From a virus: a stretch of 57,871 bases of DNA. The stretch lies in IMG/VR virus record IMGVR_UViG_3300009111_000006. The stretch is one strand, 5' to 3'. This document shows, in pieces, positions 1 to 57,871 of the stretch; position 1 is the first letter of the stretch; every line of letters begins with the position of its first letter. The notes below the pieces were generated by a model. It saw only the letters and a list, made by a program, of their open reading frames with translations, was not told the origin of the DNA and searched no databases. The position numbers and the translations under genes are program-made.

Positions 1-123
1 CTTATCGTCGCGTTGCACGTCGATCCAAGCGTAGAGCGAACAGGAAAAGAGAAACCTATTTTTTCTGTGGATGAGAGAAAGGAAATTCTTTCAGCGATCA
101 AGTATATCGACCAGGTCGTGACC
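1..123. repeat. Terminal direct repeat, copy 1 (identical to 57749..57871). Either circular-assembly overlap or terminal redundancy.
   Basis: Exact 123-bp identity between the two window ends. An ORF is continuous across the junction. Confidence 0.95.
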
Positions 124-1232: not shown

Positions 1233-4045
1233 GAGTTTATATCGCCCCAGATTACTCTGACAAGGACAAGAACGCTGACAATGGCGGTATTCGGCGCGTT
1301 GCCGAAGCCATGATGAAACACTTGCCAACTTTTGGCGTGGAAGTTGTACATGACCCGGACAAAGCCGATGTAATCTGCAACCATGGCGCGATGCTGGTGG
1401 AACGGCCTGGAGTTCCCAGCGTAAATGTAAATCATGGACTTTACTGGTCAAGGCAACCATGGGGCGCTGGATACCAGGAAGTCAATGAACTGGTGGTCGA
1501 GTCGATGCGCCATGCAGTTGCCCACACTGCCCCATCGCAGTGGGTATCAAACGCAATTCGCCGTGGTGGATTTTTCTACCCGGAAGTTGTGTATCATGGC
1601 GTGGATCCGGAAGAGTTTTCGGTCGGAGAAAACAAGGGTTACGTGCTCTGGAATAAGGCACGCGCAGACTTTGTTTCTGATCCGAACGACATGCTCAAAG
1701 TATCTACCTACCTACCAGAACGTCAATTCGTCACGACAATTGGAAACCCAGCCCATAATGTGAAAGTTATTGGGAATACACCATTCGAGAACATGAAGCA
1801 AGTTGTAGCTGATGCGGGAGTTTATCTTGCAACGGCACGCGAAACATTTGGGATTGGAACACTCGAGGCTATGGCCAGCGGCGTCCCTGTAGCTGGCTGG
1901 GATTGGGGCGGACAGAGCGAAATCATCGTCCAGGGCTATACTGGCTACCTTGCCCCTCCAGGAGATTTCCAGGCGCTGGCCGACTGCATTGAAAAATGCT
2001 TCGAGCACCGTGAACGCTTATCAGAGAACTGCATCAAGGATGTGCGTGAACGATGGACATGGGAGCCGCGCATCAAGCAGTATGCCGACATCTTCAAACG
2101 CGTCCATAAGAAATATAACCTGCGCGGCAAGAAACCAAAGGTGAGTGTGATTGTCACGGCCTACAAACTTGACCGTTATCTCCCCAAGTGCCTGGAGTCT
2201 ATTCGAGACCAGACCTTCAAGGACTTTGAGTGCCTGGTTGTTGACGACGTACCACTTGAGACAACTGCGGCGATTGTAAAGGACTTCTCCAAGAAAGACC
2301 GGCGCTTCCGATACGTCCCGGTAGTAAATAATCTGGGTTTGCCTGGCGCACGCAACTTTGGTTTCAGTCAGGCGCGAGGCCTATACATTCGTCATGTAGA
2401 TGCGGATGACTACATCGCCGATAATGCACTTTCCCTGGAAATAAAAGCACTGGACAATGACTGGGGCGTGCATATCGTTTATGGGCATCTCGAAGTCACC
2501 CGAGAAGATGGGTCTCGCATTCTTGAAAACGGAGAACCTGTGCGCAGCGGATGGCCGCCGGATCAATTCAATTGGATGCAACAAATGAGCCACCTGAACC
2601 AGTTGCCATCCTGTTCCATGGTCAGGCGCGAAGTATTTGAACGCACAGGTGGATACAGAGACCGCATGAAACGCGCAGAAGATGCTGACTTCTGGTGCCG
2701 GGCGACATCTGGCGGTTTTCGCGCCTATAAATTCACGCAGGCTGTTACTTACTTCCATCGCCAGCGTGGTGACAGCAAGGGTGCCATCGAGTGGCACGAA
2801 CAAGGCAAAGAACCTGACTGGACATCCTGGTTTCCGTGGAGAACAGGTGCAGGAGATTACGAGCAGGCGACTCAAATCATTCGTAAGTACGGTGGTGAGC
2901 ACCCATCTCCAAACTTTGTTCCATTTGGAGCACAAGGAAAGCCTCCTCGCTCGCTGCGTTACTGGTATGTGCATGACTATGCATATCCAGTAGTAAGCAT
3001 CATCGTTACTTGCGGACCAAGTCATAAGCGTTATCTGATGGACGCTCTCGACTCAATCCAGGCGCAAACATATCCTGACTGGGAATGTATCGTCGTGAAC
3101 GACACGGACGAACAGTGGGATAAAGACCTTCCAGGTGCGCCATGGGCAAAAGTCGTCAACATGCCGAGGAACAGTGGCGCAGCCGCGGCCAGAAATGCAG
3201 GATACGATCTCGCAAAGGGAAAGTTCATCGTTTGGATGGACGCTGATGATTACTGGCTTCCCTGGTATCTCGACAGAATGGTCAGCGCGGCGGAACAAAA
3301 CGATGGAGTCATCTTCTCGGATATGATCACGCGCACCAGCGAAAGCGTGTTCAAAATCCATCACTTCAACGAATTCGATTGCTCAAGGGTTCCGATCTCG
3401 ATGCAATACGCAGGTTCGTCTGTTTTGTATCCACGCAAAGTTGTCATGAGCGTTCGTAACTTGCAGGCTGGATGGGATGAGAAAGTTCCGGGGATGGAAG
3501 ATTGGGATTTCCAGGTTGCGGTTCACTCGCTCGGATATTGCGCATATCGCATCCCGGAACCACTGTTCGTATACCGGATGTACAGTTCAACCAAGCGCGA
3601 AAAAGACTATAATAATGGTGATGCCATAAAGGATTACATGGATAATAAGTGGCGTCACTATAGAACAGGAGCGAGACAAATGGCCTGCGGATGTTCAAAG
3701 AAAACTCTGGTGATGAAACCAGCCAATAGCACGTTGCAATCGTCTGGATCGTTTGCGAACGCAATCCAGCCCATGATGGTTGAAGGATCGCAGATGGTAA
3801 ACGTTGAGTACGTTGGCCCGGTTCAAGAACCTTTCACGATCAATTCTCGCGTTCAGCCTGGAATACGCTATCGCTTCGCGAACAATGATTACCATCGCGT
3901 AAAGACGGTGCTGATCCAGGATGCCGAATTCCTGATCAATCTTCTCGATGGAAATGCGGTTCCGCTCTACCGGGTTGTGCCAACCGGCACTGCTGCGGAA
4001 ACGAATGACCCGGCTGCATTCCTCGGACAGGCAATTCAAGCATGA
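1229..4045 (+). CDS. 938-aa fusion of three glycosyltransferase domains (GT4/GT1-type plus two GT2/GT-A) with an unassigned C-terminal domain of about 120 aa
   Basis: GIGTLEAMASGVPVAGWDWGGQSEII (EX7E-type GT-B). VSVIVTAYKLDRYLPKCLESIRDQTFKDFECLVVDD and VSIIVTCGPSHKRYLMDALDSIQAQTYPDWECIVVND (GT2). ATGA overlap with the upstream gene. Confidence 0.85.
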   Translation: MRVYIAPDYSDKDKNADNGGIRRVAEAMMKHLPTFGVEVVHDPDKADVICNHGAMLVERPGVPSVNVNHGLYWSRQPWGAGYQEVNELVVESMRHAVAHTAPSQWVSNAIRRGGFFYPEVVYHGVDPEEFSVGENKGYVLWNKARADFVSDPNDMLKVSTYLPERQFVTTIGNPAHNVKVIGNTPFENMKQVVADAGVYLATARETFGIGTLEAMASGVPVAGWDWGGQSEIIVQGYTGYLAPPGDFQALADCIEKCFEHRERLSENCIKDVRERWTWEPRIKQYADIFKRVHKKYNLRGKKPKVSVIVTAYKLDRYLPKCLESIRDQTFKDFECLVVDDVPLETTAAIVKDFSKKDRRFRYVPVVNNLGLPGARNFGFSQARGLYIRHVDADDYIADNALSLEIKALDNDWGVHIVYGHLEVTREDGSRILENGEPVRSGWPPDQFNWMQQMSHLNQLPSCSMVRREVFERTGGYRDRMKRAEDADFWCRATSGGFRAYKFTQAVTYFHRQRGDSKGAIEWHEQGKEPDWTSWFPWRTGAGDYEQATQIIRKYGGEHPSPNFVPFGAQGKPPRSLRYWYVHDYAYPVVSIIVTCGPSHKRYLMDALDSIQAQTYPDWECIVVNDTDEQWDKDLPGAPWAKVVNMPRNSGAAAARNAGYDLAKGKFIVWMDADDYWLPWYLDRMVSAAEQNDGVIFSDMITRTSESVFKIHHFNEFDCSRVPISMQYAGSSVLYPRKVVMSVRNLQAGWDEKVPGMEDWDFQVAVHSLGYCAYRIPEPLFVYRMYSSTKREKDYNNGDAIKDYMDNKWRHYRTGARQMACGCSKKTLVMKPANSTLQSSGSFANAIQPMMVEGSQMVNVEYVGPVQEPFTINSRVQPGIRYRFANNDYHRVKTVLIQDAEFLINLLDGNAVPLYRVVPTGTAAETNDPAAFLGQAIQA

Positions 4046-4359
4046 TTACCTGGATTGAACTTACGATCTTCTCTCTGGCAACCTGGCGCATATCTTCGTT
4101 GATCGTAAACGAGGAAGGCCCATTCGATATTTTCCTGCGCATCAGGGAATTTATTGGCATACGGCATGACGATAACGGAAAACCGCTCATGGTTCCTGAG
4201 CGGTTTTTTCCTAAGCTTATTTCTTGCGTATGGTGCTCGAGTGTTTGGGTTGGATTTGCGTGGACTGCAACCTATTACTTTTTCCCAGAAACAACCTATC
4301 TTCTTGCTATGCCATTCTTTTTGAGCGCAGTGGCGATTATATTCAGTAAGTATGCCTAA
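4042..4359 (+). CDS. Small membrane protein, DUF1360-like
   Basis: Two or three hydrophobic helices, ATWRISSLI and CVWCSSVWVG motifs. ATGA overlap with the glycosyltransferase gene. Confidence 0.6.
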   Translation: MITWIELTIFSLATWRISSLIVNEEGPFDIFLRIREFIGIRHDDNGKPLMVPERFFPKLISCVWCSSVWVGFAWTATYYFFPETTYLLAMPFFLSAVAIIFSKYA

Positions 4360-30132: not shown

Positions 30133-31174
30133 TTTCGTAGTCCGCTTTCATCCAGGCGGGCAGTTCTGTGTTTGCATCCTGAGACGCCTGGATTTCGATG
30201 GCCTTATTCTCTCGGGAAAGACGTGCTGTTTTTTGCCCAATCACCCAATGGGTAAGGCTGCGGGGGGATGAAATCCAACTGACTTTTCCTTCGGACTTGA
30301 TGACTTCCATGGCCTTGACAACATCCACTGGTTGGCAGCGCTGCGCCATCCAATCTTCAAAAGTGGATACCCATTCGTGGAAGTTCCGCTTGGTGTATTC
30401 CAGACCAGTGGCTCCACAGACTGCTTTCCCAAACGAGTGATAAATCTCAGGAAGCTTTGTCCATGAACGGCCAGCGGCAAGCTGGTTTTGCTTCAGCAAG
30501 AAAGCGAGTTCTTTGTCGGATGCTTCGATGATTGATTTCAGTTCGCTCTCAGAGAGTGTGTTTCCCTGTGTTTCAGTGGGTTTTGTGTTTACGTCCGACG
30601 ATACCCCTGGTATTACGTGGGACGTAAGGCTGGTATTACGTGGGACGTAAGGCTTCTCTTTTTTAGGTGTTACGTCCGACGTAATACTTCTTTTTTGAAT
30701 ACTTGCTGATGTAGCTTTTTTTGTGCGATATTTCGCGATTTTTTTGCGATCTTCCAGCCGCTTTTCAAGTCCATCCATATCGATGGCGCTTTCTTGATCC
30801 TGCAACCAGTATTCTTGGCCGTTTACGAAATCTGGTTTATCCGTAGTCGGAACGAGTACCTTATAGGTCTCGAGTCCATCAAGAGCCTTTCTCACGGCCT
30901 GGATACCTAACCCGCAACCCCTGGAAAGGATAGAGCCGTCTTTCTTTGATACGATCCCATCGGTAAATTGCGACAGGCTAATCTTATCCTTTCGGCTGAT
31001 GATGTTGTCCTGAAATCCCAAAATTCTGCGGATTGCATAAAACAAAACCGTATTTTCTTCTGGGGTTAGATAGGACATTAGATTATCTACAAAGTAATTC
31101 GGGCACTGGAAAGAATTCGGGATGATTGAATTTCCACCCGCGCTATACCTTGCCCGCAAATCTTTCACTTCCAT
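30122..31174 (-). CDS. Replication initiator, lambda O-like
   Basis: N-terminal NSFQCPNYFVDNLMSYLTPEENTVLFYAIRRILGF (Phage_rep_O-like winged helix). Iterons lie inside the linker-coding part. AGGAGG RBS. Confidence 0.7.
   Translation of the reverse strand: MEVKDLRARYSAGGNSIIPNSFQCPNYFVDNLMSYLTPEENTVLFYAIRRILGFQDNIISRKDKISLSQFTDGIVSKKDGSILSRGCGLGIQAVRKALDGLETYKVLVPTTDKPDFVNGQEYWLQDQESAIDMDGLEKRLEDRKKIAKYRTKKATSASIQKRSITSDVTPKKEKPYVPRNTSLTSHVIPGVSSDVNTKPTETQGNTLSESELKSIIEASDKELAFLLKQNQLAAGRSWTKLPEIYHSFGKAVCGATGLEYTKRNFHEWVSTFEDWMAQRCQPVDVVKAMEVIKSEGKVSWISSPRSLTHWVIGQKTARLSRENKAIEIQASQDANTELPAWMKADYENVG
30589..30750. other. Candidate replication origin: four dyad boxes TTACGT-N3-ACGTAA plus a flanking A+T-rich tract
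   Basis: Boxes start at 30589, 30613, 30636 and 30670. The middle two belong to a perfect 23-bp tandem repeat (30608..30653). T-runs at about 30690..30745. Confidence 0.65.
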
Positions 31175-32921: not shown

Positions 32922-32967
32922 TGTATCTCCTGTTAGCATTATAGAACATCGTTTCTATCAAACCAAT

Positions 32968-33027
32968 ATGACAAATGTCACTTCTTTTCGGTGCGGATGT
33001 AATTCCGATACGAATCGGGAGTATAAT
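32968..33027 (+). promoter_or_regulatory. Divergent control region: RTGAC-N4-GTCAY box, a TTCCGAT/ATCGGGA hairpin, and TATAAT
   Basis: Box at 32968..32981, hairpin at 33003..33020, TATAAT at 33022..33027. Confidence 0.5.
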
Positions 33028-35483: not shown

Positions 35484-35725
35484 TGAACGCTTTCCGATTC
35501 GTATCGGTAATTTATGCCGACTTGCGCAAGGCGCTGCAAAGTAAATTCGTGCGCACTGCCTTGTTGCGTGCTTACTCTCGCAGGCTGGCCGCAGGGATGT
35601 CTTATGTCTGCATTGTACTTGGGGTGATTTTGTTTATTTTCCAGCCTGGTAACGCGGCATTGTTCTTTGCTATGGCAGCGCTTTTCAGAATGCAATTTCA
35701 TCGGATGGACAGGTGGATGTTATGA
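35480..35725 (+). CDS. Small membrane protein (81 aa)
   Basis: ATGA coupling. Helix VCIVLGVILFIFQPGNAALFFAMAALF. Confidence 0.5.
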   Translation: MMNAFRFVSVIYADLRKALQSKFVRTALLRAYSRRLAAGMSYVCIVLGVILFIFQPGNAALFFAMAALFRMQFHRMDRWML

Positions 35726-35946
35726 GACTGAGTACATTTGTGGGCGCTGTGAACTGGACGAGTGCAATCATCTTGTTGTGGTTGATGGTGCTCGGGTCTG
35801 TGGAAAATTCCACCACCACCTGGTTTGCTTTCTGGTTCTTTGTGGTGATGGGTCTCTTGTCTGGCGCGGCCTCGCTCTATGATCCCGATGCGTATCGGAA
35901 ACGCAAGCAGGAGAAAATGCAGGACAGGCACGACATAGGGACATGA
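35722..35946 (+). CDS. Small membrane protein (74 aa)
   Basis: ATGA coupling and AGGTGGA RBS. Two hydrophobic helices. Confidence 0.5.
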   Translation: MRLSTFVGAVNWTSAIILLWLMVLGSVENSTTTWFAFWFFVVMGLLSGAASLYDPDAYRKRKQEKMQDRHDIGT

Positions 35947-35977: not shown

Positions 35978-36334
35978 TTATCCGTAGTTCTGGGGAGTGA
36001 AGTCATCGGCAGCGGTGCGGATACCCAGTTCCGCTTCGAGCTTCCTGATTTTGAGTTCCAGCAGGCGGATTTCTTCAACCTGTTTTGACTGGCGGATCAC
36101 GGCGTTCTCGGTGTTGGCCTGGGTCATCTGGTAGCGATAGATCACACCCTGAGTCTGGTGCAGGACTTGCTGTTTGCGGAGGGCGATCATTTCCTCGTCA
36201 GCTTTGAGCTGGGCACGGCGGGCTTTCATTTCGGCGGCTTCGGCCTGGGCCTTGCGCACCTGGGAGAGATTGACGCAACCAAGGATTGCATTCGTGATAG
36301 CAACAAAGGTATGAACACGTTTTTTGGTAGCCAT
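35978..36334 (-). CDS. Coiled-coil protein (118 aa)
   Basis: AAAGGAATAAT RBS before MATKKRV. Confidence 0.5.
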   Translation of the reverse strand: MATKKRVHTFVAITNAILGCVNLSQVRKAQAEAAEMKARRAQLKADEEMIALRKQQVLHQTQGVIYRYQMTQANTENAVIRQSKQVEEIRLLELKIRKLEAELGIRTAADDFTPQNYG

Positions 36335-36350
36335 GGGATTATTCCTTTCT

Positions 36351-36881
36351 TTATTCTGGCGCAAAAGCGGGGGCGCAGGTGAAACTGATTGAATTGCGGC
36401 GATTATTTCTTTTCGCAGCTTGAACCATCGAACCAGCGATCTCGATGTCTCTCTCGATGTTATGGGTGGCGTGTACCCATGCGAAAGTGGCTGTTATACC
36501 TTCGTTCTTCAGGCAAGCAGCGAGGCGGGAGCAAAAACCTTCGGCGTTATCGCTGGACAGGATGAAGACAAGTTCGTCACCCGAAAACCAGCGGGCACGC
36601 AGCATACAATCGGCGGCGCGAACATGAATCGCCCGCTTGATCTTGCCGTTCATGACCTCGTAACCGTTCTTACCACCTTCGCTGTATTTCTCGTTCAGGG
36701 TGTGTAGGTTATCAATATCCATGAAGATCACACAGCGGGCAGTGTTGGCGATGCGGGGAAGTTCATACTTCAGGGCGGCTCGGGTGGTAACACCAAAGGC
36801 GGGATCCACCGAAAGTTCATTGACCATCATCTGCATGGTCAAGAGTTGGGCTTGCAAGTCGTGGTAAGAATGGCGTGGCAT
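36351..36881 (-). CDS. Stand-alone GGDEF-family nucleotide cyclase-like protein (SGDEL motif)
   Basis: DPAFGVTTRAAL, FMDIDNLHTLNEKY, RWFSGDELVFIL, TATFAWVHA and MVQAAKRNNRR line up with GGDEF-domain landmarks. Confidence 0.75.
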   Translation of the reverse strand: MPRHSYHDLQAQLLTMQMMVNELSVDPAFGVTTRAALKYELPRIANTARCVIFMDIDNLHTLNEKYSEGGKNGYEVMNGKIKRAIHVRAADCMLRARWFSGDELVFILSSDNAEGFCSRLAACLKNEGITATFAWVHATHNIERDIEIAGSMVQAAKRNNRRNSISFTCAPAFAPE

Positions 36882-36903: not shown

Positions 36904-36947
36904 AGTGTAGCAAAGTTCCGATACACATCGGGAGTGTCAAATATCAC
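36904..36947 (-). promoter_or_regulatory. Box variant, then a TTCCGAT/ATCGGGA hairpin, then a TACACT -10, upstream of the GGDEF gene
   Basis: Box at 36934..36947, hairpin at 36916..36933, -10 at 36904..36909. Confidence 0.45.
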
Positions 36948-37203: not shown

Positions 37204-37434
37204 TTATTCCTTTGCAATGTTGTCACGGTGGATGGAGATCGGCTGTCCGCTTTCCAGCGCTCTTACCCCAGACTTGGTACACGTCCAGGGCAGTCCATAG
37301 GGGGTATAGAAGGGGAGCTGTGTTTTTTCTGGATTGTTCAAGTGATCGGTGCGGACATAGCAGGTGTTATTCCAGCGATCAGTTACCTTCGTCACTGCAA
37401 AGTGACCGGGGAGCGGTGCGACTTTTTCAGACAT
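37204..37434 (-). CDS. Hypothetical protein (76 aa)
   Basis: AAAAGGAATAT RBS. It overlaps the upstream stop. Confidence 0.45.
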   Translation of the reverse strand: MSEKVAPLPGHFAVTKVTDRWNNTCYVRTDHLNNPEKTQLPFYTPYGLPWTCTKSGVRALESGQPISIHRDNIAKE

Positions 37435-38773
37435 GGGAATATTCCTTTTTGATGGTCTTGAATTCATCCGTAACGTTGATCGCCTGGGTATCCTTGTGGG
37501 CGGTCAGGATGGATTGGAAGAGCTTACGTGTGGTGGTAAGAGTAATCCAGTCAAGCGAACCGGTATCACTGGCGGGGGCGTGCTCGGTGCTTTCTTTCCA
37601 GTTCTTGCGCTGGAGGTTGCCAAAGGCGCGATACAAGCGGCGCAATTCATTAGCGCATGTGGCGGGGAGATTCTTATACTCCCGGCGGATGCGTGCCCGC
37701 TCTTTGTTCATGGCGGTCATTAGTTCCGATTTGGAAGTCCGCACCTGATCAGGTGCGGACTGGTTGATTGGTTGGGGATTGCAAAAGACCATGGCGAAAA
37801 TTGCGCCCCATTCGGGGTGTATTTTGCCCCAGTTGTCAGTCTGATTTTGCACTTTTACAACCTGTATACGGTCACACTGTACAGCATCATCGGCTGGGGA
37901 TGTTTCCAGCCCGCGGGGATCCATTTCGTAGGGGAATGGGTCCTGCTTTTGTTCGTCGAAATTCCAGCCCGAAGGTTGCCAGATGAACGGAGTGGGATCG
38001 GAGTACTCGCGTTTTTCGCCGTAAGCATCCGTACCATCACCGGCCTGTAATTGGGTAGGACTTTCCAGGAACAGGGGCATAATGATGTATTGAATGTTGG
38101 CAAACTTGAACAGGAACGGCGCATTGTGGGCGTTCATGGTGACGGTAATCGCTTCACCATCGGCGGATTTGGTCATTTCATACAGGAACTTTGCGTTGAT
38201 ACCAGCCACAAACGGGGGAACATTTGTCACATTACAGGGGATGTCCCAACGAGTCGAACCGATTTCTTCACTCTTGCTTGCGAGCACATGCCCGGATGAC
38301 GTAATGCTCCAGTGAATGGGATTGTAGGGGAGTTGGGCGCTTTTGGCGAATGAATTCATGTGAGCGGCGGCGGCGGTAAAGTCGGCGGGCAATTCATAGG
38401 TGTATTTCGCCATGCGGGGGATGATTTGGTTGTAATCCGGGAAGGTGGCCTCTACCAGCGAAACCGCTTTACCGTCAATCTCGTGCTTGACCATATCGAT
38501 CGAGATCATTTGTCCCTTGCTTGTTTTGCTCTTTGCAATGGCTTTCATGGTATCCATGGAAACCAGCATCCCGGCGTGCAGTTCGTCAACGGGCTGATCA
38601 GTTTCGAATTCTGCAACGGCTATGCGGAAACCATCGGCGGATACGAGGCGCAAGGTATTGCGGTAATGGTGGAAAAACACGCCACAAAGAGCGGGGCGTG
38701 CATCATCTTTTGACGCGCAAGGGATGACACGATTGATTGCTTTCTTGAATTCAACGGCTGAAATGGTGATCAT
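37427..38773 (-). CDS. DnaN (beta sliding clamp)-like protein with only two clamp domains, plus a C-terminal extension of about 210 aa
   Basis: RPALCGVFF...LRLVSADGFRIAV (domain I), FPDYNQIIP, ...QYIIMPLFL (clamp C-terminus) at about residue 236 of 448. Confidence 0.6.
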   Translation of the reverse strand: MITISAVEFKKAINRVIPCASKDDARPALCGVFFHHYRNTLRLVSADGFRIAVAEFETDQPVDELHAGMLVSMDTMKAIAKSKTSKGQMISIDMVKHEIDGKAVSLVEATFPDYNQIIPRMAKYTYELPADFTAAAAHMNSFAKSAQLPYNPIHWSITSSGHVLASKSEEIGSTRWDIPCNVTNVPPFVAGINAKFLYEMTKSADGEAITVTMNAHNAPFLFKFANIQYIIMPLFLESPTQLQAGDGTDAYGEKREYSDPTPFIWQPSGWNFDEQKQDPFPYEMDPRGLETSPADDAVQCDRIQVVKVQNQTDNWGKIHPEWGAIFAMVFCNPQPINQSAPDQVRTSKSELMTAMNKERARIRREYKNLPATCANELRRLYRAFGNLQRKNWKESTEHAPASDTGSLDWITLTTTRKLFQSILTAHKDTQAINVTDEFKTIKKEYSHV

Positions 38774-42455: not shown

Positions 42456-42491
42456 GTGTCATTTGTCATATATTTTTATGACAAATGTCAT
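42456..42491. promoter_or_regulatory. Two RTGAC-N4-GTCAY boxes in inverted orientation, 22 bp centre to centre
   Basis: GTGTCATTTGTCAT (42456..42469) and ATGACAAATGTCAT (42478..42491), inside the 445-bp early/late divergent region. Confidence 0.6.
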
Positions 42492-42612
42492 AATACATTT
42501 GTTCTATATTGCCAAACACGAACTTTATTCGTTGCTCGAATTCGACATAGGCACTACTTCTCACGCACGATTTCCGATTTTTCAATTCCATCCATATTTC
42601 CCCCGATAAAAT

Positions 42613-42655
42613 ATGACGAATGTCACTTGTGACGCAGCTCTCGCTGTTGTAAGAT
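42613..42655 (+). promoter_or_regulatory. Late-arm promoter: the box abuts the -35 TTGTGA, 17-nt spacer, -10 TAAGAT
   Basis: Box at 42613..42626, -35 at 42627..42632, -10 at 42650..42655, AAGGAG RBS, ATG at 42673. Confidence 0.55.
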
Positions 42656-43430: not shown

Positions 43431-43436
43431 GTGTGT

Positions 43437-43955
43437 ATGGAACATCTTGACCAGGTCATCAAGTCGGTTACGCTGATCGCCCAGCCGGAGATTGAAAAAG
43501 CGACATTCCTGCTTACCGAGGTGCGCGATCGCGGGAATAGTGTGTGGATTGTCGGGAATGGCGGGAGTGCTGCGACCGCATCGCATTTTGCAAACGATCT
43601 GTGCAAAATGGGCGGGGTGAAAGCATTTTCATTGCCGGACATGACATCTCTAGTGAGTGCGCACGCGAACGATGATGGGCATGGGGCGATGTTCTCTGAA
43701 CCACTGAAGAGGATGCTGAATACCAACGATGTGCTGGTCGCGATCTCGTGTAGCGGGAATTCCGAAAATGTTGTGAACGCTGCGCAGTTTGCGATGAGCA
43801 TTGGCTGTGTCGTTATTGCGATGACCGGGAACAGGCCAAGTCGGTTATCGTTACTCAAACCGGATGTGCTAATTCAAGCCATGGCGGAACACATCACGGT
43901 GCAGGAAGACATACACATGATCGCCTGCCATGCGATTGCGAGGGGGATAAGATGA
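43437..43955 (+). CDS. gmhA: SIS-domain phosphoheptose isomerase (GmhA-like)
   Basis: VGNGGSAATASHFANDL and ISCSGNSENV. Confidence 0.75.
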   Translation: MEHLDQVIKSVTLIAQPEIEKATFLLTEVRDRGNSVWIVGNGGSAATASHFANDLCKMGGVKAFSLPDMTSLVSAHANDDGHGAMFSEPLKRMLNTNDVLVAISCSGNSENVVNAAQFAMSIGCVVIAMTGNRPSRLSLLKPDVLIQAMAEHITVQEDIHMIACHAIARGIR

Positions 43956-44249: not shown

Positions 44250-44993
44250 ATGCAGTGCCAGGCGTATGTGCGCAACTGCCGTGAATGTGGATACCACGAT
44301 GATCATCGCGCCAATGGAAACTGCCCGCAGTGTTGTGCTGACAGGCGCTGTCGCGAGAACGCAGTGCCGGGATATAAATGGTGCGATCGGCACGGTGGGC
44401 CTGCGCCTGGAAGAAACTTCTACGGATTGGGAAGGCGTATGACAACCGGGTCGGGCAGTTCATTTCCGCTGACAAGGCTGGCATCGAAATATCGCCAGAT
44501 GATCCAGGATGGCCGCATACTTTCGAACCGGCACAGCTTGGAGATTGTACGCCATCGCATCGAGCAGTTGGCAGATCGCATCGATCTGAATGATGCGCCG
44601 GATAGGTTTGCGGTTCTCTCCAAGCTATGGAAGGAATACACAAAGAAGATTGACGAGAAGCAGCCGCTCGAAGCCCATGCCGTTCGCCTGCAAATCGATG
44701 AGCAGTTCGAAGCTGCCTATCACGATTACGCAGCCTGGAAACAGATGTTCGAAGCGCTTGACCTGGACAGGAAGATGGTCGAGAGCGAAGTGAAAGTAGC
44801 CAAGGAAATTCAGGCAATTATGACCGCCGAGGAAGCATACGAGTTTGCGGCCAAGTTGCTGGGAGCGATAATGAATGTTGTTACAGACGCAGGGCAACTC
44901 CGCAGAATCCAATACGAGTTTACGCGACTTATTGGCGAAAAGCCTGAGCAGCGGGCTGGGTCAGGCGGCGGAGAAGTTATCGAAGTCGAATGA
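44250..44993 (+). CDS. Putative small terminase subunit with an N-terminal Cys-rich zinc finger
   Basis: Called only from its position directly upstream of the large terminase. Confidence 0.4.
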   Translation: MQCQAYVRNCRECGYHDDHRANGNCPQCCADRRCRENAVPGYKWCDRHGGPAPGRNFYGLGRRMTTGSGSSFPLTRLASKYRQMIQDGRILSNRHSLEIVRHRIEQLADRIDLNDAPDRFAVLSKLWKEYTKKIDEKQPLEAHAVRLQIDEQFEAAYHDYAAWKQMFEALDLDRKMVESEVKVAKEIQAIMTAEEAYEFAAKLLGAIMNVVTDAGQLRRIQYEFTRLIGEKPEQRAGSGGGEVIEVE

Positions 44994-47439
44994 TCCGGCG
45001 AGCTGGATAGAAGACAACTTCTACATCCCGGAGACCCGCAACGATCCCGATCTGCGCGGGTTGATGCGTTTGCAGGACTACCAGCGGGACGCGATCCGGG
45101 AAGCATTGTCCAAAGATGAAAATGGGCTGTATAAGTACTCGATCATCGTCTGGTCCGACATCAAAAAATCTGCCAAGTCGTCAATCGCCGCAGCGGTTGT
45201 GCAATATGGTCTCGAACATACGGAATGGGGCGAATACTACATCATTGCCAACGATCTCAAGCAGGCTGACTCGCGTGTGGCGCATTACCTGAGAAGGTCG
45301 ATCCAGTTGAACGCGGACAAGTCCACGAAGTATTCCACGCGTGGATACAAGATAACTTCGCAGAACGGCTCTTTCGCCGAAGCGATCCCGATTGATCCAA
45401 GCGGAGAGGCCGGATCGAACGCGGATGGAATTTTCTTCTCCGAATTGTGGGGGGCGAACGAAGAGCAGAAACACATCATGTGGTGTCTCGATCAGGACAG
45501 TGACGTTTTGACCCGGAAGGGCTGGAAAAAAGGCGTAGAACTTACGCGCCTCGATGAAGTAGCTGTCTACAATTATGGAAAGATTGAGTGGGAACATCCG
45601 CGTTCTGTTTTTATCGAGCATTACACTGGCAAGATGCACTTATACGAGCATAAAAACTTTAGTCTGATGTGTACTCCCGATCATCGGCTTTATGGACGAT
45701 ATTCTTATGCTGGAATGAAGTCAGGGCGATATGACACATTCGGAGTGATGCGATCCAACGTTCTGCGAGAAAGTGGATACGGATATTACCATCCGGTTTT
45801 GACTGCCGATCCGGTTGCGGGCGAAATCGACATTCCGAAATATATTTACATCGCAAAAACAAAATTCAAGCCGGAGAAATATATCCCGTGGGACAAGTGG
45901 GCTTCGTTCATGGGGTTATATCTCACCGAGGGCAGCACAGATACTTTCCGTGGGGTTCCTTGCCATGTGAAAATTTCTCAATTGCGGGAACCCCATCCAC
46001 AAAGGTATGACCGAATTCGCGAAATCCTGGAAGATGTTTTTGGCGATTGGCTAAATGTAAACAAACGTGACGGATTTTCAATTGGAAGCACAGAGCTTGC
46101 CAAGATTACAAAAAAGTTTGGAACGACATGGCAGAAACGCATTCCGAGGACGATCATTGAAAGCCCGCCGGATGTACTCGAAAAATTCCTGGAAGGATTT
46201 TGGCTTGGAGATGGAAGCAATCCAATCAAGTCTGGAACGAAAACTTATTGCTGTGCAAGCGAGGGACTCGCAGACGATTTGCAAGAAATCTTATTTAGAC
46301 TTGGATACCGATCGTCGAAACGCCCCCATGAAAAATATTGGAGAGTGAGCCAGATACTTGGATCGTTTGATGTTTCTGTCAGCAAAAAATCCTGGCAGGA
46401 AGTCGATTACTCCGGGAAAGTCTGGTGCCCGGTTGTCTCTACAGGATTGTTTATTGCAAGAAGGGAAGGCAGACCATTCGTGACCGGTAACAGTGAAATG
46501 ACGCTTTCGCCGACAAAATACGGAAAGTCCTTCCGTTGGGTGGAGTCGTATGCCGGGTTCATCGAAGAGTCGAAACTTCTGTACAGCCTGTACGAAACTG
46601 GCGTTAAACGTGGACAGCTTCTCTGGCCGGACAGGTTATATCCTGTAACTGGCGGCGCACCGGCACCGTTGGAACTGTATGTCAACCGGGATGCCCGTAT
46701 GTTGTGCCTGTGGAATACACAACCTCGCTGCCCATGGCAAACACCGGAGTATTACCAGTCAGAATCGCAGGTTTTGCTGCCTAATCAGTTTGCTCGTATG
46801 CACCGCAACCAGTGGGTGGCGAGCGAGGAAGTTTTCGTGCCGGTCGAGTGGTATGACGCTTGTTTCCATGGATCCCAGGATTGGCCAACGTATGACCATA
46901 AAAAGCATCCGATGATTATCGCCCTGGATGCTGGTGTTTCCTCGGATAACTTCGGTCTCTGGATGGGATGCAGGCACCCTGCATCATCGAAGGATGTGCT
47001 GACACAGTATGTCCAGCGCTGGAAGCCGCCGATCGGTGGAAAGATAGACTTCCAGGGCACCGTTGAAAATCCGGGCCCGGAGCGTGTTTTGCGACAACTT
47101 GTAAAAGAGTATAATGTAATAGAAATTGCCTACGATCCGTACCAGCTTCATGACATGGCAACCAGGCTCAAGCAGGAAGGACTTGCGTGGTTTCGACCGT
47201 TTGGTCAGGGCAACGAGCGCTTGCTTGCCGACAGCCAGTATCGGGCACTTATTAGAGATCGCAGGTTTTGGCACCGCGGCGAACCCGAGATGCGCGAGCA
47301 TGTTATGAACGCCAATGCCAGCGTGGATGAAAAGAACGACAATAAATTGCGCATCGTGAAGCGGAACGAAAGTAGCAAAATAGACCTGTGCATCACGGCC
47401 AGCATGGGTTCGTATGAAATCTTACGACTAAACCTGTGA
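44875..47439 (+). CDS. terL: Terminase large subunit interrupted by an intein (518-aa extein)
   Basis: Position before the portal gene. Terminase-like N- and C-terminal regions. The only in-frame ATG is at 44875, which gives a 119-nt overlap with the upstream gene. Confidence 0.75.
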   Translation: MLLQTQGNSAESNTSLRDLLAKSLSSGLGQAAEKLSKSNDPASWIEDNFYIPETRNDPDLRGLMRLQDYQRDAIREALSKDENGLYKYSIIVWSDIKKSAKSSIAAAVVQYGLEHTEWGEYYIIANDLKQADSRVAHYLRRSIQLNADKSTKYSTRGYKITSQNGSFAEAIPIDPSGEAGSNADGIFFSELWGANEEQKHIMWCLDQDSDVLTRKGWKKGVELTRLDEVAVYNYGKIEWEHPRSVFIEHYTGKMHLYEHKNFSLMCTPDHRLYGRYSYAGMKSGRYDTFGVMRSNVLRESGYGYYHPVLTADPVAGEIDIPKYIYIAKTKFKPEKYIPWDKWASFMGLYLTEGSTDTFRGVPCHVKISQLREPHPQRYDRIREILEDVFGDWLNVNKRDGFSIGSTELAKITKKFGTTWQKRIPRTIIESPPDVLEKFLEGFWLGDGSNPIKSGTKTYCCASEGLADDLQEILFRLGYRSSKRPHEKYWRVSQILGSFDVSVSKKSWQEVDYSGKVWCPVVSTGLFIARREGRPFVTGNSEMTLSPTKYGKSFRWVESYAGFIEESKLLYSLYETGVKRGQLLWPDRLYPVTGGAPAPLELYVNRDARMLCLWNTQPRCPWQTPEYYQSESQVLLPNQFARMHRNQWVASEEVFVPVEWYDACFHGSQDWPTYDHKKHPMIIALDAGVSSDNFGLWMGCRHPASSKDVLTQYVQRWKPPIGGKIDFQGTVENPGPERVLRQLVKEYNVIEIAYDPYQLHDMATRLKQEGLAWFRPFGQGNERLLADSQYRALIRDRRFWHRGEPEMREHVMNANASVDEKNDNKLRIVKRNESSKIDLCITASMGSYEILRLNL
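45484..46491 (+). mobile_element. Intein (336 aa) with a LAGLIDADG homing endonuclease
   Basis: Starts at Cys (W|CLDQDSDVLT). Block B TPDH. LYLTEGST and FLEGFWLGDGS. Ends ...FVTGN|S. Confidence 0.8.
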
Positions 47440-53750: not shown

Positions 53751-53786
53751 ATCCAAGGGAAGAAATTGAATAAACAGGAGGAAGCA

Positions 53787-54734
53787 ATGCTTGAAGGTAA
53801 GATTCTCATTACGGGTGGTGCAGGCACGCTTGGACGCGCAATTATCAAGCGCTCCACTGAAGATAAATGGCCCTGCCAAATTACAATCTTTTCGACCGAT
53901 GCAATCAAGCACGCTTTTGTGCGCGAGCAGTATCCGCATGTTCAATCGGTCATTGGCGACATCCGCTCTTATGATGCCGTCTACAATGCCATGGCGGGCA
54001 AGGACATCGTCATTCATGGCGCAGCGGTAAAACATATCCCGGTCAGTGAGTACAATTCAATCGATACCTACGAAATCAACGTGGAAGGTTCGCGCAATGT
54101 TTGTATGGCGGCGATCCAGCATCACACTCCCCACGTTCTGGGTATCTCGACTGATAAAGCCTGTCATCCCGCAAATGCCTATGGCGCGACCAAGATGCTG
54201 ATGGAGAAGATTTTCCAGGAATATGCACGCCTGGGTTTCTCTACTCAGTTCCATCTGGTTCGTTATGGCAACGTGCTGGAGAGCACCGGCTCTGTTATTC
54301 AAGTTTGGAAGAAAGCCATCGAGGATCACCAACCGATCAAAATGACCGACCCAGAAATGACTCGTTTCTGGCTTTCTCCAGACCAGGCGGTTACGCTGGT
54401 GCTGAAATCACTTGAATTGCAGAGTGGGCATATCTATGTCGCGAAAATGCCAGCTCTGAGTATAAGAAGACTGGCAGAGTATGGACTTGGGCTTGAAACG
54501 TTGGAGGAGATGTCGGTTGAAATTATTCCGCTTCGACCTGGAGAAAAAACGCACGAGGAACTCTTGACCGTTGAAGAGTGTCCATACGCCACTGAGTACA
54601 GAGATCATTATGACTTACGACCAAGCACAGATGTTCGTTACTTGCCCCACTGCGCTGCACATAAATACTCCAGCGATGAACCTGACCGAGAGCTAAGAAT
54701 GAAAGAATTACAGGAGATGCTTGACAATGGCTAA
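53787..54734 (+). CDS. PseB/CapD-type nucleotide-sugar 4,6-dehydratase
   Basis: ILITGGAGTLG, HGAAVKHIPVSEYN, ISTDKACHPANAYGATKMLMEK, VRYGNVLESTGSVI, MTRFWL. Confidence 0.85.
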   Translation: MLEGKILITGGAGTLGRAIIKRSTEDKWPCQITIFSTDAIKHAFVREQYPHVQSVIGDIRSYDAVYNAMAGKDIVIHGAAVKHIPVSEYNSIDTYEINVEGSRNVCMAAIQHHTPHVLGISTDKACHPANAYGATKMLMEKIFQEYARLGFSTQFHLVRYGNVLESTGSVIQVWKKAIEDHQPIKMTDPEMTRFWLSPDQAVTLVLKSLELQSGHIYVAKMPALSIRRLAEYGLGLETLEEMSVEIIPLRPGEKTHEELLTVEECPYATEYRDHYDLRPSTDVRYLPHCAAHKYSSDEPDRELRMKELQEMLDNG

Positions 54735-54999
54735 ACTATCTGGAACGGCAACGATCAGTGTCAATATATCCTTAGTCTTGCCAGAAGGCGAAGCGAGAGC
54801 GCTTTTAGCCATTGCAACATACGATTCGCAAGAATTCTTGCGCATCTATAAAGAGAAAATGGGAAGTAGACTCGATGGAAGAGAAAAAGACCTTTCATCA
54901 TTATTTGCGAGTATTCGTCTTCTACTTCCTCCAGTTATAAAAAATATCGACGACGCAAGGAGTTCTTTTTCTGGCGAAACGGATAACTGCAATGGATAA
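54727..54999 (+). CDS. Hypothetical protein (90 aa) within the sugar operon
   Basis: ATG overlaps the upstream stop (ATGGCTAA). Confidence 0.45.
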   Translation: MAKLSGTATISVNISLVLPEGEARALLAIATYDSQEFLRIYKEKMGSRLDGREKDLSSLFASIRLLLPPVIKNIDDARSSFSGETDNCNG

Positions 55000-55004
55000 C
55001 TGCA

Positions 55005-55685
55005 ATGGATAACCTGCCTCGTCTCGCGATTGCGATGGTGACATATAGGCGAACCGAAGAAGCACTGCGAACCATCCGAGGCGTATCGGAAAACCTTGTA
55101 TACCCAAAAGAATTGATTGGCTGGTTCGTTGGCGATGATGGCTCTGACAAGGCTCACTCCAATGCCTTGATACAAGAGATTGTGCGCGCGAGCGATGGCA
55201 GGCTGGTCGATTATCACAATGAGCGCTTTACTCCCATGACTGGTAAGGGCTGGAATCGCGTACTCGGGATGGGATACCAATATTCCGATTTTGTCCTGTG
55301 GCTGGAAGATGACTGGGAACTCACAAAGCCATTTTTTATCGAACCATACATTCGTATGCTGATGGATCGCGAAGATGTTGGGCTGGTTCGTCTTGGGCAC
55401 CTGGCAGTTGGTTCTGATGTTCACATTGTCGGTCACAGTGGCGTGCATTACCTGAAATACCAGAAAACAACTCAGTATGCTTACAGCGGCAATCCACAAA
55501 TCCGCCATGCCCGCTACGTGAAATATTACGGCTGGTATGCGGAAAACAAAAATCCAGGCGAAATAGAGCTGGATTACGATGCACGCTTTCGCGCCAGCCC
55601 TGACGGCCCGGAAATATGGCGACCGGCTGACATTCCCGGCTGGGGTGTGTTTGGGCACATTGGAACGGAGAAATCGTATGAATGA
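55005..55685 (+). CDS. GT-A fold glycosyltransferase (GT2-like)
   Basis: LAIAMVTYRRTEEAL...GDDGSD...WLEDDWEL. Confidence 0.65.
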   Translation: MDNLPRLAIAMVTYRRTEEALRTIRGVSENLVYPKELIGWFVGDDGSDKAHSNALIQEIVRASDGRLVDYHNERFTPMTGKGWNRVLGMGYQYSDFVLWLEDDWELTKPFFIEPYIRMLMDREDVGLVRLGHLAVGSDVHIVGHSGVHYLKYQKTTQYAYSGNPQIRHARYVKYYGWYAENKNPGEIELDYDARFRASPDGPEIWRPADIPGWGVFGHIGTEKSYE

Positions 55686-56262
55686 CACCTACGATGGAAT
55701 TTCGGCAGAACAATGGCAAAAAGAACTTAGCGGGCAGAGCGATTGGAACGCACGTCACTTGATGATTGCATTCGCTACGCTTGGACTTCCAAAAACTTTT
55801 CTCGATGTTGGTTGTGGCGATGGAACAATGGTCAACGTAGCCCGACACCTGGGTGTGCTCTCATATGGAGTAGACCAGCTTATCGATGACCAGTGGGACA
55901 AAACGGCTTTCTCGCACCACAACCTCGTTGACCGGTATGTTCACCCATACCAATGCGAACTTGTCCTGTGCCTGGAAGTTGCAGAACATCTTCATCCATC
56001 GGCTCACGCAACCCTTTGCGACACACTTGTCGGGAACTTGAAAGAAGGTCGTGGAAACTACCTTATCTTCTCTGCGGCGCTCCCCAACCAGGGCGGAATC
56101 GGACACGTAGCAGAGAGACCCCCGAAATACTGGATGGATCAGTTTGCGCTGCGAGGATTGAATTTCAGGCGTGACCTGACGATCAATCTTTCGTTACACT
56201 GGTCTAACATTGGCTCTCCGCTTACCTGGTTGGCGGCGAATGTTCAGGTCTGGGAGAAATAA
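55678..56262 (+). CDS. Class I SAM-dependent methyltransferase
   Basis: FLDVGCGDGTMV (motif I), LCLEVAEHL. Its start overlaps the upstream stop. Confidence 0.75.
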   Translation: MNDTYDGISAEQWQKELSGQSDWNARHLMIAFATLGLPKTFLDVGCGDGTMVNVARHLGVLSYGVDQLIDDQWDKTAFSHHNLVDRYVHPYQCELVLCLEVAEHLHPSAHATLCDTLVGNLKEGRGNYLIFSAALPNQGGIGHVAERPPKYWMDQFALRGLNFRRDLTINLSLHWSNIGSPLTWLAANVQVWEK

Positions 56263-56263
56263 C

Positions 56264-57247
56264 ATGATCATAACCAGGACACCTTTGAGAATATCCCTTG
56301 TAGGCGGCGGAACAGATTTTCCTGAGTTTTACAACCGTCATGGCGGCGCAGTTATCTCATTCGCGATCAGTAAGTATGTCTACATTTCGGTAAACGAAAA
56401 GTACGATGGAAAGACGCGAGTATCTTATTCGCATACCGAGACTGTGGAAGATGTGAGGCAGCTTGAACACAGTATCGCCAGGGAAACACTCGCTTTCTTT
56501 GAAGAAAAAGGGCTTGAAATCACATCGGTTGCCGATGTTCCCGGTACCGGCACCGGGCTGGGTTCATCAAGCGCGTATACGGTTGGTCTCATCAAAGCCC
56601 TTTCCGCCCGGAACGGTGAACGCTTTCCGCCAAAGATGTTGGCAGAAACGGCCTATACCGTAGAAGCAAAATTGTGTGGCCATGCGGTTGGAAAGCAAGA
56701 TCAATATGCAGCGGCTTATGGAGGAGTTCACTTCTTTGAATTCAAAAAGGACTACACCAGCGTAGAGCCTATCCCCATGAGCGATGGAAAAATCAAGTAC
56801 ATCGAAGATCGTATGCTCCTGTTCCATGTTGATCTTATTAGAAACGCTGACACCATTCTTTCAATGCAACAGGAACGTCTCGTCAGCGATTGCGATACTA
56901 TCAATGCTGCGAAGAAAATGACAACCATTGCCTATGAGTTGCGCGAAATGCTGCGTGACTATGGCGCAGATGTGTCATTCATAGGCGATGTTCTTCACAG
57001 GAACTGGGTTCAGAAAAAGAAACTCAGCAACGGCATATCGCATAAATACATCGATGATTTGTACATCGCAGGCCGGAATGCAGGCGCAGACGGCGGAAAA
57101 CTTTGCGGTGCCGGTGGTGGTGGCTTCATGCTCTTTTTTGCAGAACCGGACAAGCATGAAGCAATCCGCAGAGCAGTTGGATTGCGCCAGATGACTTTCA
57201 AGATTGAAAAAGAAGGGTGCAAGGTGATCTATGACTCAAAAGCCTAA
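56264..57247 (+). CDS. hddA: GHMP-family sugar kinase, HddA-like (heptose-7-phosphate kinase type)
   Basis: MIITRTPLRISLVGGGTDFPEFY, PGTGTGLGSSSA, KLCGAGGGGF. Confidence 0.75.
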   Translation: MIITRTPLRISLVGGGTDFPEFYNRHGGAVISFAISKYVYISVNEKYDGKTRVSYSHTETVEDVRQLEHSIARETLAFFEEKGLEITSVADVPGTGTGLGSSSAYTVGLIKALSARNGERFPPKMLAETAYTVEAKLCGHAVGKQDQYAAAYGGVHFFEFKKDYTSVEPIPMSDGKIKYIEDRMLLFHVDLIRNADTILSMQQERLVSDCDTINAAKKMTTIAYELREMLRDYGADVSFIGDVLHRNWVQKKKLSNGISHKYIDDLYIAGRNAGADGGKLCGAGGGGFMLFFAEPDKHEAIRRAVGLRQMTFKIEKEGCKVIYDSKA

Positions 57248-57662
57248 AATGCTTTTCTTGGACGATAGAACAAAGAGAATTCACTCAGCAATTAGAAAGT
57301 ATGGAAAAGAATACGATCTGACCATCGTTACAAATGTCAGGGAATTCTTGAGATACGTTGACAGGGAAAAGTATGACATTATCAGCATGGATCATGACTT
57401 GTGCGGGCTTGATTACATGAGCATAAACGATCCGCAATCTGGCATGGAAGCAATTAGATATATACTTGATACACATTCATCTACCATCATTGGAGGTTAT
57501 ATAAAACATGATTGCTTAGTCATAATTCATTCTTCTAACAATATGGCATCGGATGCTATGGTATCGGCATTACAGAGTGCTGGCTTGAACGTAAGGCGAC
57601 AAAGATTTGAGTATGACGGCCCAGAAAACAGCAATTTCTTGAGCAACGGAGTTTCAGAATGA
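57231..57662 (+). CDS. Receiver (CheY-fold)-like protein, resembling phage CPR-type receiver domains
   Basis: MLFLDD, DIISMDHDL and IIHSSN sit at the expected beta1/beta3/beta4 ends. AAGGTGA RBS. Confidence 0.55.
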   Translation: MTQKPKMLFLDDRTKRIHSAIRKYGKEYDLTIVTNVREFLRYVDREKYDIISMDHDLCGLDYMSINDPQSGMEAIRYILDTHSSTIIGGYIKHDCLVIIHSSNNMASDAMVSALQSAGLNVRRQRFEYDGPENSNFLSNGVSE

Positions 57663-57871
57663 GAACCGGACTTATTGCAGGCTCATTTGACATCATTCAC
57701 CCTGGCTACATCCGCTTATTTCAGGATGCAAAGCGCCATTGCGACTTCCTTATCGTCGCGTTGCACGTCGATCCAAGCGTAGAGCGAACAGGAAAAGAGA
57801 AACCTATTTTTTCTGTGGATGAGAGAAAGGAAATTCTTTCAGCGATCAAGTATATCGACCAGGTCGTGACC
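57659..57871 (+). CDS. Cytidylyltransferase-fold nucleotidyltransferase, N-terminal part (continues at 124..315 after the repeat)
   Basis: ATGA overlap with the upstream gene. MRTGLIAGSFDIIHPGYIRLF. Confidence 0.75.
   Translation, partial: MRTGLIAGSFDIIHPGYIRLFQDAKRHCDFLIVALHVDPSVERTGKEKPIFSVDERKEILSAIKYIDQVVT
57749..57871. repeat. Terminal direct repeat, copy 2
   Basis: Identical to 1..123. Confidence 0.95.

Follow-up and report, generated by a model that had tools for sequence, protein, structure and literature searches.

A minimal GGDEF-family protein encoded in the early region of an uncultured phage: a candidate sensor-less diguanylate cyclase

Closest described systems

The canonical diguanylate cyclases with a GGDEF domain (PF00990; e.g., PleD, WspR, SadC and DosC) work only as dimers, in which a GTP is held by each domain and the signature Glu activates the 3'-OH of the partner's substrate (PMC6456294). 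A minimal protein of this type is encoded in IMG/VR virus record IMGVR_UViG_3300009111_000006, whose whole stretch of 57,871 nucleotides (nt) is referred to here as the window. The gene is located as follows.

36351..36881, minus strand: gene of the minimal GGDEF protein, 176 amino acids (aa), stop codon included (open reading frame and sequence; the same gene is called in public contigs)

Judged by sequence profiles and a structure model, the window protein is a true but divergent GGDEF domain. With a probability of roughly 0.55, it is an active, sensor-less, coiled-coil-dimerised and product-limited diguanylate cyclase that would raise the level of cyclic diguanylate (c-di-GMP) in the host. 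It shares with the canonical cyclases the fold, the metal ligands (PleD D327 and E/D370), the general base (E371), N335, K442/R446, the cross-dimer Arg (R300) and the primary inhibitory site, or I-site (R359-x-x-D362 with R390). It differs from them in having no sensor or receiver domain, a signature that begins with Ser in place of Gly and is preceded by an additional residue (R-W-[FY]-S-G-D-E), Asn for Asp344 (a replacement that is found in about 45% of its family) and a score below the Pfam gathering cut-off.

A single helix running into the GGDEF domain is also found in GCN4-WspR (3i5c), Caulobacter DgcB (6ttr) and SiaD (7e6g), which match the window protein with TM-scores of 0.62-0.72 (query-normalised, over the whole 176 residues). 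In these proteins, the helix belongs to a longer stalk under signal regulation or is an artificial zipper, whereas that of the window protein has about 2.5 heptads, constitutes the entire non-catalytic part and would serve in dimerisation. Active cyclases with a residue other than Gly at the first signature position include Pectobacterium ECA3270 (SGDEF) and Vibrio cholerae VCA0965 (AGDEF) (PMC3974145). Both are large sensor-linked bacterial proteins that are likened to the window family by their signature.

The Hypr GGDEFs (Geobacter GacA and Bdellovibrio Bd0367) carry a natural substitution at the position that reads the Watson-Crick edge of the base, together with an obligatory central Asp in the signature (GGDEF, never GGEEF) (PMC6456294). 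The window protein has this Asp (D102), as do 149 of 157 family sequences, the set to which all residue counts below refer unless 217 is stated. Unlike the Hypr enzymes, it has no receiver domain, and its substitution is Asn instead of Ser/Thr (Ser occurs in 5 of 217 family sequences). It also keeps an Arg (R34) at the position of GacA Y304, where the Hypr enzymes that make mainly 3',3'-cGAMP (cyclic GMP-AMP) have Tyr, Ser, Ala or Gln.

Several phage proteins have been annotated as GGDEF proteins, including a 183-aa 'diguanylate cyclase' of SP-15, gp350 of phage G and a 152-aa protein of CN1. These match the window protein in Foldseek at E 1e-8 to 6e-5, with only 19-23% identity. The palm domains of mCpol and Cas10 (Panoptes, type III CRISPR) resemble it in their distantly related palm fold, minimal stand-alone format and setting in phage-host conflict. 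Unlike them, the window protein has GGDEF-type motif and specificity residues, lacks a 2TM effector partner and gives an insignificant Pfam palm match.

Gene and family assignment

The gene was identified from the list of open reading frames and the sequence of the window as a 176-codon reading frame on the minus strand, with an ATG at 36881 and its end at 36351. A Shine-Dalgarno-like sequence (AAAGGA) is located 9 nt 5' of the ATG. A longer GTG-initiated version of 198 aa was rejected, since the public calls on the same contig are 176 aa long and the close homologs all use the same Met. Comparison with the ortholog (83% identity) on P0002, a 51.6-kb contig of a related phage, gave nonsynonymous (dN) and synonymous (dS) rates of 0.091 and 0.98, respectively, i.e., a dN/dS ratio of 0.09. 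The gene is to all appearance expressed and, because of this ratio, under strong purifying selection. A chance reading frame or non-coding sequence was rejected on the same ratio and on the hundreds of homologs of similar length.

Three unnamed PHROGs match the window protein at E about 1e-4. A profile of six family sequences retrieved solved diguanylate cyclases from the PDB at E 9e-7, and a profile of 55 sequences retrieved SadC as the best match (E 3e-12), PleD (2e-4) and in total 43 distinct diguanylate cyclase chains below 1e-3. Alignment of the family with the PleD catalytic domain by hhalign gave a probability of 96.8% (E 3e-10). The sequence used here is what we take to be that domain, its numbering fitting R313, D327, N335, D344, R359, D362, G368, R390, K442 and R446. 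A precomputed PF00990 match is present in about half of the retrieved close homologs, and the other half have no Pfam match.

The AlphaFold2 model built from the 55-sequence alignment had a mean predicted local distance difference test score (pLDDT) of 92.8 and a predicted TM-score (pTM) of 0.86. Of 79 Foldseek matches to the PDB at E<=1e-3, the best 50 were all GGDEF-domain proteins (probability 1.00, TM-score 0.6-0.73). Significant matches in a viral structure library were confined to phage proteins annotated as GGDEF or diguanylate cyclase, which come from Bacillus phages G and SP-15, Bordetella phage CN1 and uncultured Caudovirales. Membership in the GGDEF family is far beyond chance because of these profile, hhalign and structure-based results. 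An earlier sequence-only reading, made by eye, had proposed a GGDEF domain over the whole protein length and a structural comparison with PleD, GacA and the Cas10/mCpol palm. The hidden Markov model (HMM) and hhalign alignments, the model and Foldseek bear out the former. The comparison, in the form of AlphaFold2 and Foldseek, recovered GGDEF-domain proteins, and there was no Cas10 protein among the listed best matches.

Active site, base-reading position and I-site

The catalytic domain and its motifs are located as follows.

36381..36812, minus strand: GGDEF catalytic domain, residues 24-167 (profile against the PDB, hhalign against PleD, AlphaFold2 and Foldseek)
36780..36806, minus strand: D26-P-A-F-G-V-T-T-R34, equivalent to DxLTGLxNR (PleD D292...N299-R300; hhalign against PleD)
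36693..36719, minus strand: D55-I-D57...N63 (profile-PDB and hhalign alignments)
36666..36683, minus strand: six-residue insertion S67-E-G-G-K-N72 (family gap column and hhalign insertion)
36648..36650, minus strand: Asn78, Watson-Crick-edge base-reading position, equivalent to PleD D344 and GacA S348 (alignments to five cyclases and PleD)
36609..36620, minus strand: R88-A-A-D91, RxxD motif of the I-site (aligned with the RxxD of SadC, DosC, 3ign and PleD R359/D362)
36570..36593, minus strand: R97-W-F-S-G-D-E-L104, active-site hairpin, or A-site (profile-PDB and hhalign alignments)
36525..36527, minus strand: R119, equivalent to PleD R390, third residue of the primary I-site (hhalign)
36396..36413, minus strand: K157-R-N-N-R-R162, equivalent to AKxxGR (profile-PDB and hhalign alignments)

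Four motif correspondences had been drawn by eye, and all were reproduced by the HMM and hhalign alignments: DPAFGVTTR with DxLTGLxNR, MDIDN...N with DxD...N, RWFSGDEL with RxGG(D/E)EF, and AKRNNRR with AKxxGRN. The SGDEL signature is present at S100-L104, and the protein has no sensor domain, both as previously described. The catalytic Asp/Glu residues and the metal ligands are all present in these alignments, as are the phosphate-binding Lys and Arg.

D55, D57 and N63 correspond to PleD D327 (metal ligand), D329 (second Asp) and N335 (sugar-edge base-contacting Asn), and are conserved in 147, 141 and 147 of the 157 sequences, respectively. The signature S100-G-D-E-L104 corresponds to PleD G368-G-E-E-F372, with D102 as metal ligand and E103 as general base (S100, 130/157; G101, 149/157; D102, 149/157; E103, 150/157). 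K157 corresponds to K442 (150/157) and R161/R162 to R446, which serve in substrate phosphate binding. R34 corresponds to the cross-dimer Arg, PleD R300, and is kept in 135 sequences (86%); this Arg stacks on guanine and favours guanine (PMC6456294). All catalytic residues (D55, D57, N63, D102, E103, K157 and R161/R162) are thus conserved as far as the alignments tell, and the catalytic and I-site columns are 85-97% conserved among 157-217 family members. Activity is compatible with a Ser at the start of the signature, because both ECA3270 and VCA0965 are active cyclases (PMC3974145). The placement of the spacer before the signature is the sole detail on which the two alignments disagree: HMMER treats W98 as a one-residue insertion and pairs R97 with R366, whereas hhalign places the extra residues further upstream.

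Two details of the sequence-only reading did not hold. It had assigned a Tyr to the base-reading position; this residue, Tyr74, aligns with PleD H340, and G73-Y74 corresponds to the conserved 'GH' (G339-H340), which contains no specificity residue. In every HMM and hhalign alignment, the guanine-specifying Asp (PleD D344) is replaced by Asn78. The error arose because the insertion S67-N72, which is carried by the window protein and its nearest relative and is a gap in 151-152 of the 157 sequences, shifted the register of the alignment made by eye. An RxxD I-site had also been reported as missing. R88-x-x-D91 and R119 align with PleD R359/D362/R390, and R88 (152/157), D/E91 (143/157) and R119 (146/157) rank with the best-conserved positions in the family.

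Helix and dimer architecture

The residues preceding the catalytic domain form a single predicted element.

36813..36866, minus strand: N-terminal helix, residues 6-23, predicted coiled-coil dimerisation stalk (AlphaFold2 secondary structure, family heptad conservation and fold matches)

In the AlphaFold2 model, a single long helix, residues 6-23, is followed immediately by the GGDEF fold. The hydrophobic heptad positions of the window protein are L9, L13, M16, V20 and L23, and Leu, Ile or Val is conserved in the family at 9, 13, 16, 20 and 23, i.e., with a 4-3-4-3 spacing. The best full-length fold matches consist of a stalk and a GGDEF domain (SiaD 7e6g, GCN4-WspR 3i5c and DgcB 6ttr). Because of the heptad helix, the stalk-bearing fold matches and the dimer requirement of GGDEF enzymes, we infer that the window protein would be a constitutive coiled-coil dimer without signal input, for which product inhibition at the I-site would be the only brake.

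Distribution and genomic context of the family

When 1.84 billion representatives were searched exhaustively with a profile, 1949 proteins were retrieved at E<=1e-3 and, at the stricter E<=1e-10, 311, the latter being counted as family representatives at 50% identity. The family members, typically of 140-200 aa, are considered stand-alone proteins because the best 150 matches are all 113-236 aa long. The hallmark of the family is R-W-[FY]-S-G-D-E-[LIF], and SGDE[LIF] is found in about 170 of 217 sequences.

The window gene is located in the early/replication region, between a sliding-clamp-like gene (37427-38773) and genes encoding RNase H, a DenV-like glycosylase and DnaB, in agreement with the replication-module location described from the sequence. 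The window and P0002 contigs are both siphovirus-like, each encoding a tape-measure protein and Dit, and the gene has this location in P0002 as well. In other phages, the family member adjoins terminase and portal genes (P0024), occurs with Rad52, clamp, integrase and amidase genes (P0060), or occurs with topoisomerase, exonuclease and DUF5906 primase genes (P0123). Further members were detected in three IMG/VR contigs. An all-against-all BLAST of the neighbours revealed no neighbour gene common to the phage loci. Because the phage loci have no neighbour in common, the phage protein is read as an enzyme without a dedicated effector, the product of which must act on host components.

Two neighbours of the window gene were noted in their own right. 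The sliding-clamp-like protein (37427-38773, minus strand; 448 aa) matches the last two of the three clamp domains with residues 3-234, its C-terminal ~210 residues are without a match, and its homolog in the related phage has 411 aa. The gene at 35981-36334 (minus strand), 16 nt downstream of the cyclase gene, encodes a 118-aa protein in which a long coiled coil follows a hydrophobic N-terminus. This protein is kept in the related phage (118 aa), is not found beside other family members and has no family match.

Cellular members were identified in metagenome-assembled genomes (MAGs) of Latescibacterota, Gemmatimonadota, Handelsmanbacteria, Planctomycetota and Chloroflexota. The conserved cellular operon contains an ABC-2 transporter and, downstream, a lipoprotein of ~190 aa, together with one of two sets: a GHMP sugar kinase with a nucleoside triphosphate (NTP) transferase, or a PAS hybrid histidine kinase. 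Shared neighbours were found only among the cellular members. In some Chloroflexota, the mini-GGDEF gene is adjacent to, or fused with, the gene of a canonical GGDEF-ribbon-helix-helix protein (L012, 2444-3601; L013, 5383-6546; L018, 5968-7148). From their sequences, the two could possibly form a pair of a cyclase and a c-di-GMP-responsive repressor.

No cultured-phage homolog was detected by tblastn with the window protein or the P0024 protein as query. The only INPHARED matches were LR756501.1 and LR756503.1 (221186-221467), two records of an unannotated 735-kb uncultured phage, with 29% identity over residues 15-117 (E 3e-4).

Proposed mechanism

The steps of dimerisation, activity, product identity and host effect are inferred as follows. 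The helix 6-23 would form a parallel coiled coil that holds the two catalytic domains together permanently, in the manner of the GCN4-WspR fusion, which is constitutively active, and of the DgcB and SiaD stalks. Each domain would bind one Mg-NTP, with the metal held by D55 and D102, the phosphates by K157 and R161/R162, and the base contacted by N63 and N78. R34 would stack on the base bound in the partner subunit. E103 would deprotonate the 3'-OH of the partner's substrate to yield a 3',5'-cyclic purine dinucleotide, most likely c-di-GMP. Without an input domain, the level of output would be set by transcription from the phage early/replication region and capped by product binding to the I-site (R88, D91 and R119). 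The product would act on c-di-GMP receptors of the host, with less motility and altered surface glycans or adhesion as likely outcomes. Superinfection exclusion or holding the cell in place is a possible purpose, and the phage's own glycan-synthesis cluster may take part.

Several observations weigh against this reading. The single sequence scores below the curated cut-offs of both Pfam GGDEF (PF00990; 18.8 bits, cut-off 23.8) and TIGR00254 (26.5 bits, cut-off 37.4). GTP specificity is not assured, as the alignments place Asn, not Asp, at the guanine-reading position. Ser takes the place of the signature's first Gly, and in the HMMER alignment the active-site loop exceeds the canonical length by one residue. 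The spacer between RxxD and the signature is 2-3 residues longer than that of PleD, so the geometry of the I-site could differ. A search of INPHARED revealed no close relatives of the phage (no megablast match; DnaB only about 30% identity), and the window contains no c-di-GMP riboswitch or recognisable receptor.

Alternative explanations

It is possible, but rather doubtful, that the protein is an active cyclase of an Asn78/Phe99 subtype with changed purine specificity, which makes 3',3'-cGAMP, cyclic di-AMP (c-di-AMP) or a mixture, like the Hypr GGDEFs, and perhaps interferes with cyclic-dinucleotide signalling or defence. Position 78 is Asp in 114, Asn in 94 and Ser in 5 of 217 sequences (N/D about 45/55). 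Its strongest covarying column is position 99, directly before the signature, where Phe accompanies Asn and Tyr accompanies Asp (total-variation distance 0.69). As a matter of general chemistry, the amide of Asn could pair with the Watson-Crick edge of either adenine or guanine. The central signature residue is nearly always Asp (149/157), and natural Ser/Thr-348 Hypr enzymes carry GGDE[F/Y] exclusively (PMC6456294).

An apparent Asn at the position equivalent to D344 (SYQKGN) is also found in Bacillota MAG loci L015-L026, which encode proteins of ~345 aa with an N-terminal degenerate GGDEF-like region and a C-terminal RxxD...ARWFSGDEF domain. Because these larger, multidomain proteins carry Asn there as well, the alignments indicate that the Asn type is a widespread natural class that extends beyond the minimal proteins. 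The Asn/Asp split with its covarying loop residue is, on the sequence evidence, a real peculiarity and not purely a clade effect, since D78 is combined with F99 in one homolog (P0003) that shares about 80% identity with the window protein.

The same homolog argues against changed specificity, as its combination of Asp with Phe99 suggests that Asn and Asp are interchangeable without re-tooling. In addition, residue 78 is not Ser/Thr, the c-di-GMP-binding I-site is intact, and a literature search found nothing on Asn-type GGDEFs. The cross-dimer Arg R34 is kept in 86% of the family, and Hypr enzymes that keep this Arg make more c-di-GMP (PMC6456294). The non-canonical specificity suggested by the sequence-only reading thus loses its Tyr argument, which came from the misalignment, and persists in a weaker form through the Asn that occurs in ~45% of the family and covaries with position 99. 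A broader and equally tentative proposal is that the R-W-F-S-G-D-E/Asn78 branch (phage, MAG and Bacillota) is an unrecognised specificity class, in which the change of Asp to Asn with Tyr to Phe would make the enzyme accept ATP or other purine NTPs instead of, or besides, GTP, and that phages use a constitutive mini-cyclase to flood the host with c-di-AMP or 3',3'-cGAMP. If this is true, the purpose could be to manipulate host physiology, or to jam or decoy cyclic-dinucleotide defences.

Binding of c-di-GMP through the I-site instead of synthesis, by which the protein would act as a sponge that lowers free host c-di-GMP or as a sensor that reports to the phage, is unlikely. Degenerate GGDEF domains such as PelD and FimX are well known as c-di-GMP receptors, and nucleotide sponges encoded by phages exist. 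The columns of R88, D/E91 and R119 belong to the best conserved in the family; however, the catalytic residues dispensable for a receptor (D55, D57, N63, D102, E103 and K157) are equally conserved. The protein has no output domain and no conserved partner, and there was no PADLOC match. The earlier idea of a signalling mimic or decoy finds no positive support: conservation is as high for the catalytic as for the binding residues, and none of the defence-system models matches.

A Cas10-palm/mCpol-like or other palm nucleotidyltransferase, which would make linear or cyclic oligoadenylates or prime DNA in keeping with a functional replication-module position, is very improbable: the weak Pfam match to Cas10/Cmr2 palm2 (E 0.079, 13.5 bits, cut-off 27) and the sliding-clamp-like, RNase H and DnaB neighbours stand against a stronger GGDEF match in every search, GGDEF proteins only and no Cas10 among the best 50 of 79 PDB fold matches (E<=1e-3), the motif SGDE[LIF] instead of GGDD, the presence of the cyclase-specific N335, K442 and R446 equivalents and the I-site, the location of the gene away from replication genes in other phages (P0024 and P0123), and no defence-model match in PADLOC, and the assignment was rejected.

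Upstream element and repeats

The candidate diguanylate cyclase gene is preceded by a conserved element.

36904..36943, minus strand: upstream element with TTGACA (36935-36940), palindrome CCGATGTGTATCGG (36918-36931) and TACACT (36904-36909) (conservation against the P0002 phage)

This 40-nt element is almost invariant between the window and P0002 phages, and its flanks diverge. The spacing between TTGACA and TACACT is 25 nt in the window and 24 nt in the related phage, which is not sigma-70-like, and a sigma-70 consensus scan upstream of the cyclase gene revealed no promoter. The gene had been credited with its own promoter consisting of boxes and a hairpin. The element itself is real and is conserved in the related phage, but a promoter function is not borne out by the scan and the spacing. 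From its sequence, 36904-36943 could plausibly serve the phage as a regulatory site, perhaps as a promoter with an overlapping operator.

The palindrome CCGAT-N4-ATCGG, with at most one mismatch, occurs in 13 copies in the window compared with 2.2 expected, and none of 100 shuffles reached 13. A second intergenic copy with the same flanks is located at 33005, upstream of a different gene on the minus strand. Within 4 kb there are four exact copies (33005-33018, 35494-35507, 35885-35898 and 36918-36931), two of which are intergenic with the common flanks 'actcCCGAT..ATCGGaa' and two of which lie inside small plus-strand open reading frames. A second palindromic motif, TATGACAAATGTCA, is present at 32967-32980, 42477-42490 and 42612-42625 (two exact copies) and is intergenic-looking and operator-like. 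At 30607-30652, a 23-nt unit, CTGGTATTACGTGGGACGTAAGG, which contains an inverted repeat, is perfectly duplicated in tandem.

Other features of the window

A large nucleoside diphosphate (NDP)-sugar/glycosylation gene cluster occupies 53766-57871 and 1-4359 of the window, plus 43431-43955. This cluster encodes two epimerase/dehydratases, a family 2 glycosyltransferase (GT2), a methyltransferase, a GHMP kinase, a CTP_transf_like nucleotidyltransferase and a DUF1360 protein. It also encodes a 938-945-aa protein composed of GT1, GT2 and GT2 and a 143-aa protein that matches 'cREC_REC' and is possibly a phosphatase. A SIS-domain isomerase is encoded elsewhere in the phage genome. By gene content, the cluster looks like a heptose-type activated-sugar pathway. 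Sugar genes also occur near other family members (GHMP kinase and NTP transferase with the cellular homologs; SIS and sulfotransferase in the P0123 phage). A link from c-di-GMP to glycans is conceivable.

The large terminase gene (44875-47439, plus strand) encodes 835-854 aa, of which only residues 636-845 show terminase homology, and gives a faint LAGLIDADG match; from its sequence, it probably holds an intein or a homing-endonuclease insertion. No other Rfam families and no tRNAs were found in the window.

Significance

The window protein belongs to a well-known enzyme family, of which it is an unusual and unstudied variant, and does not represent a new kind of system. About half of its close homologs have no Pfam match, and genes of this type can therefore be taken for hypothetical proteins. 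The split between Asn and Asp, which is near 50/50, with its covarying loop residue, offers a natural experiment on the nucleotide specificity of GGDEF domains. A constitutively active, product-limited mini-cyclase, if real, would be a handy tool to raise c-di-GMP in heterologous hosts.

A host takeover of this kind is annotated in a few genomes, and no functional study of a phage-encoded GGDEF cyclase was found in the literature. If active, the protein would represent about the smallest natural diguanylate cyclase architecture, a zipper of ~20 residues joined to a catalytic domain, and its phages would write directly into the main lifestyle switch of the host, which governs motile versus sessile life and surface glycans.

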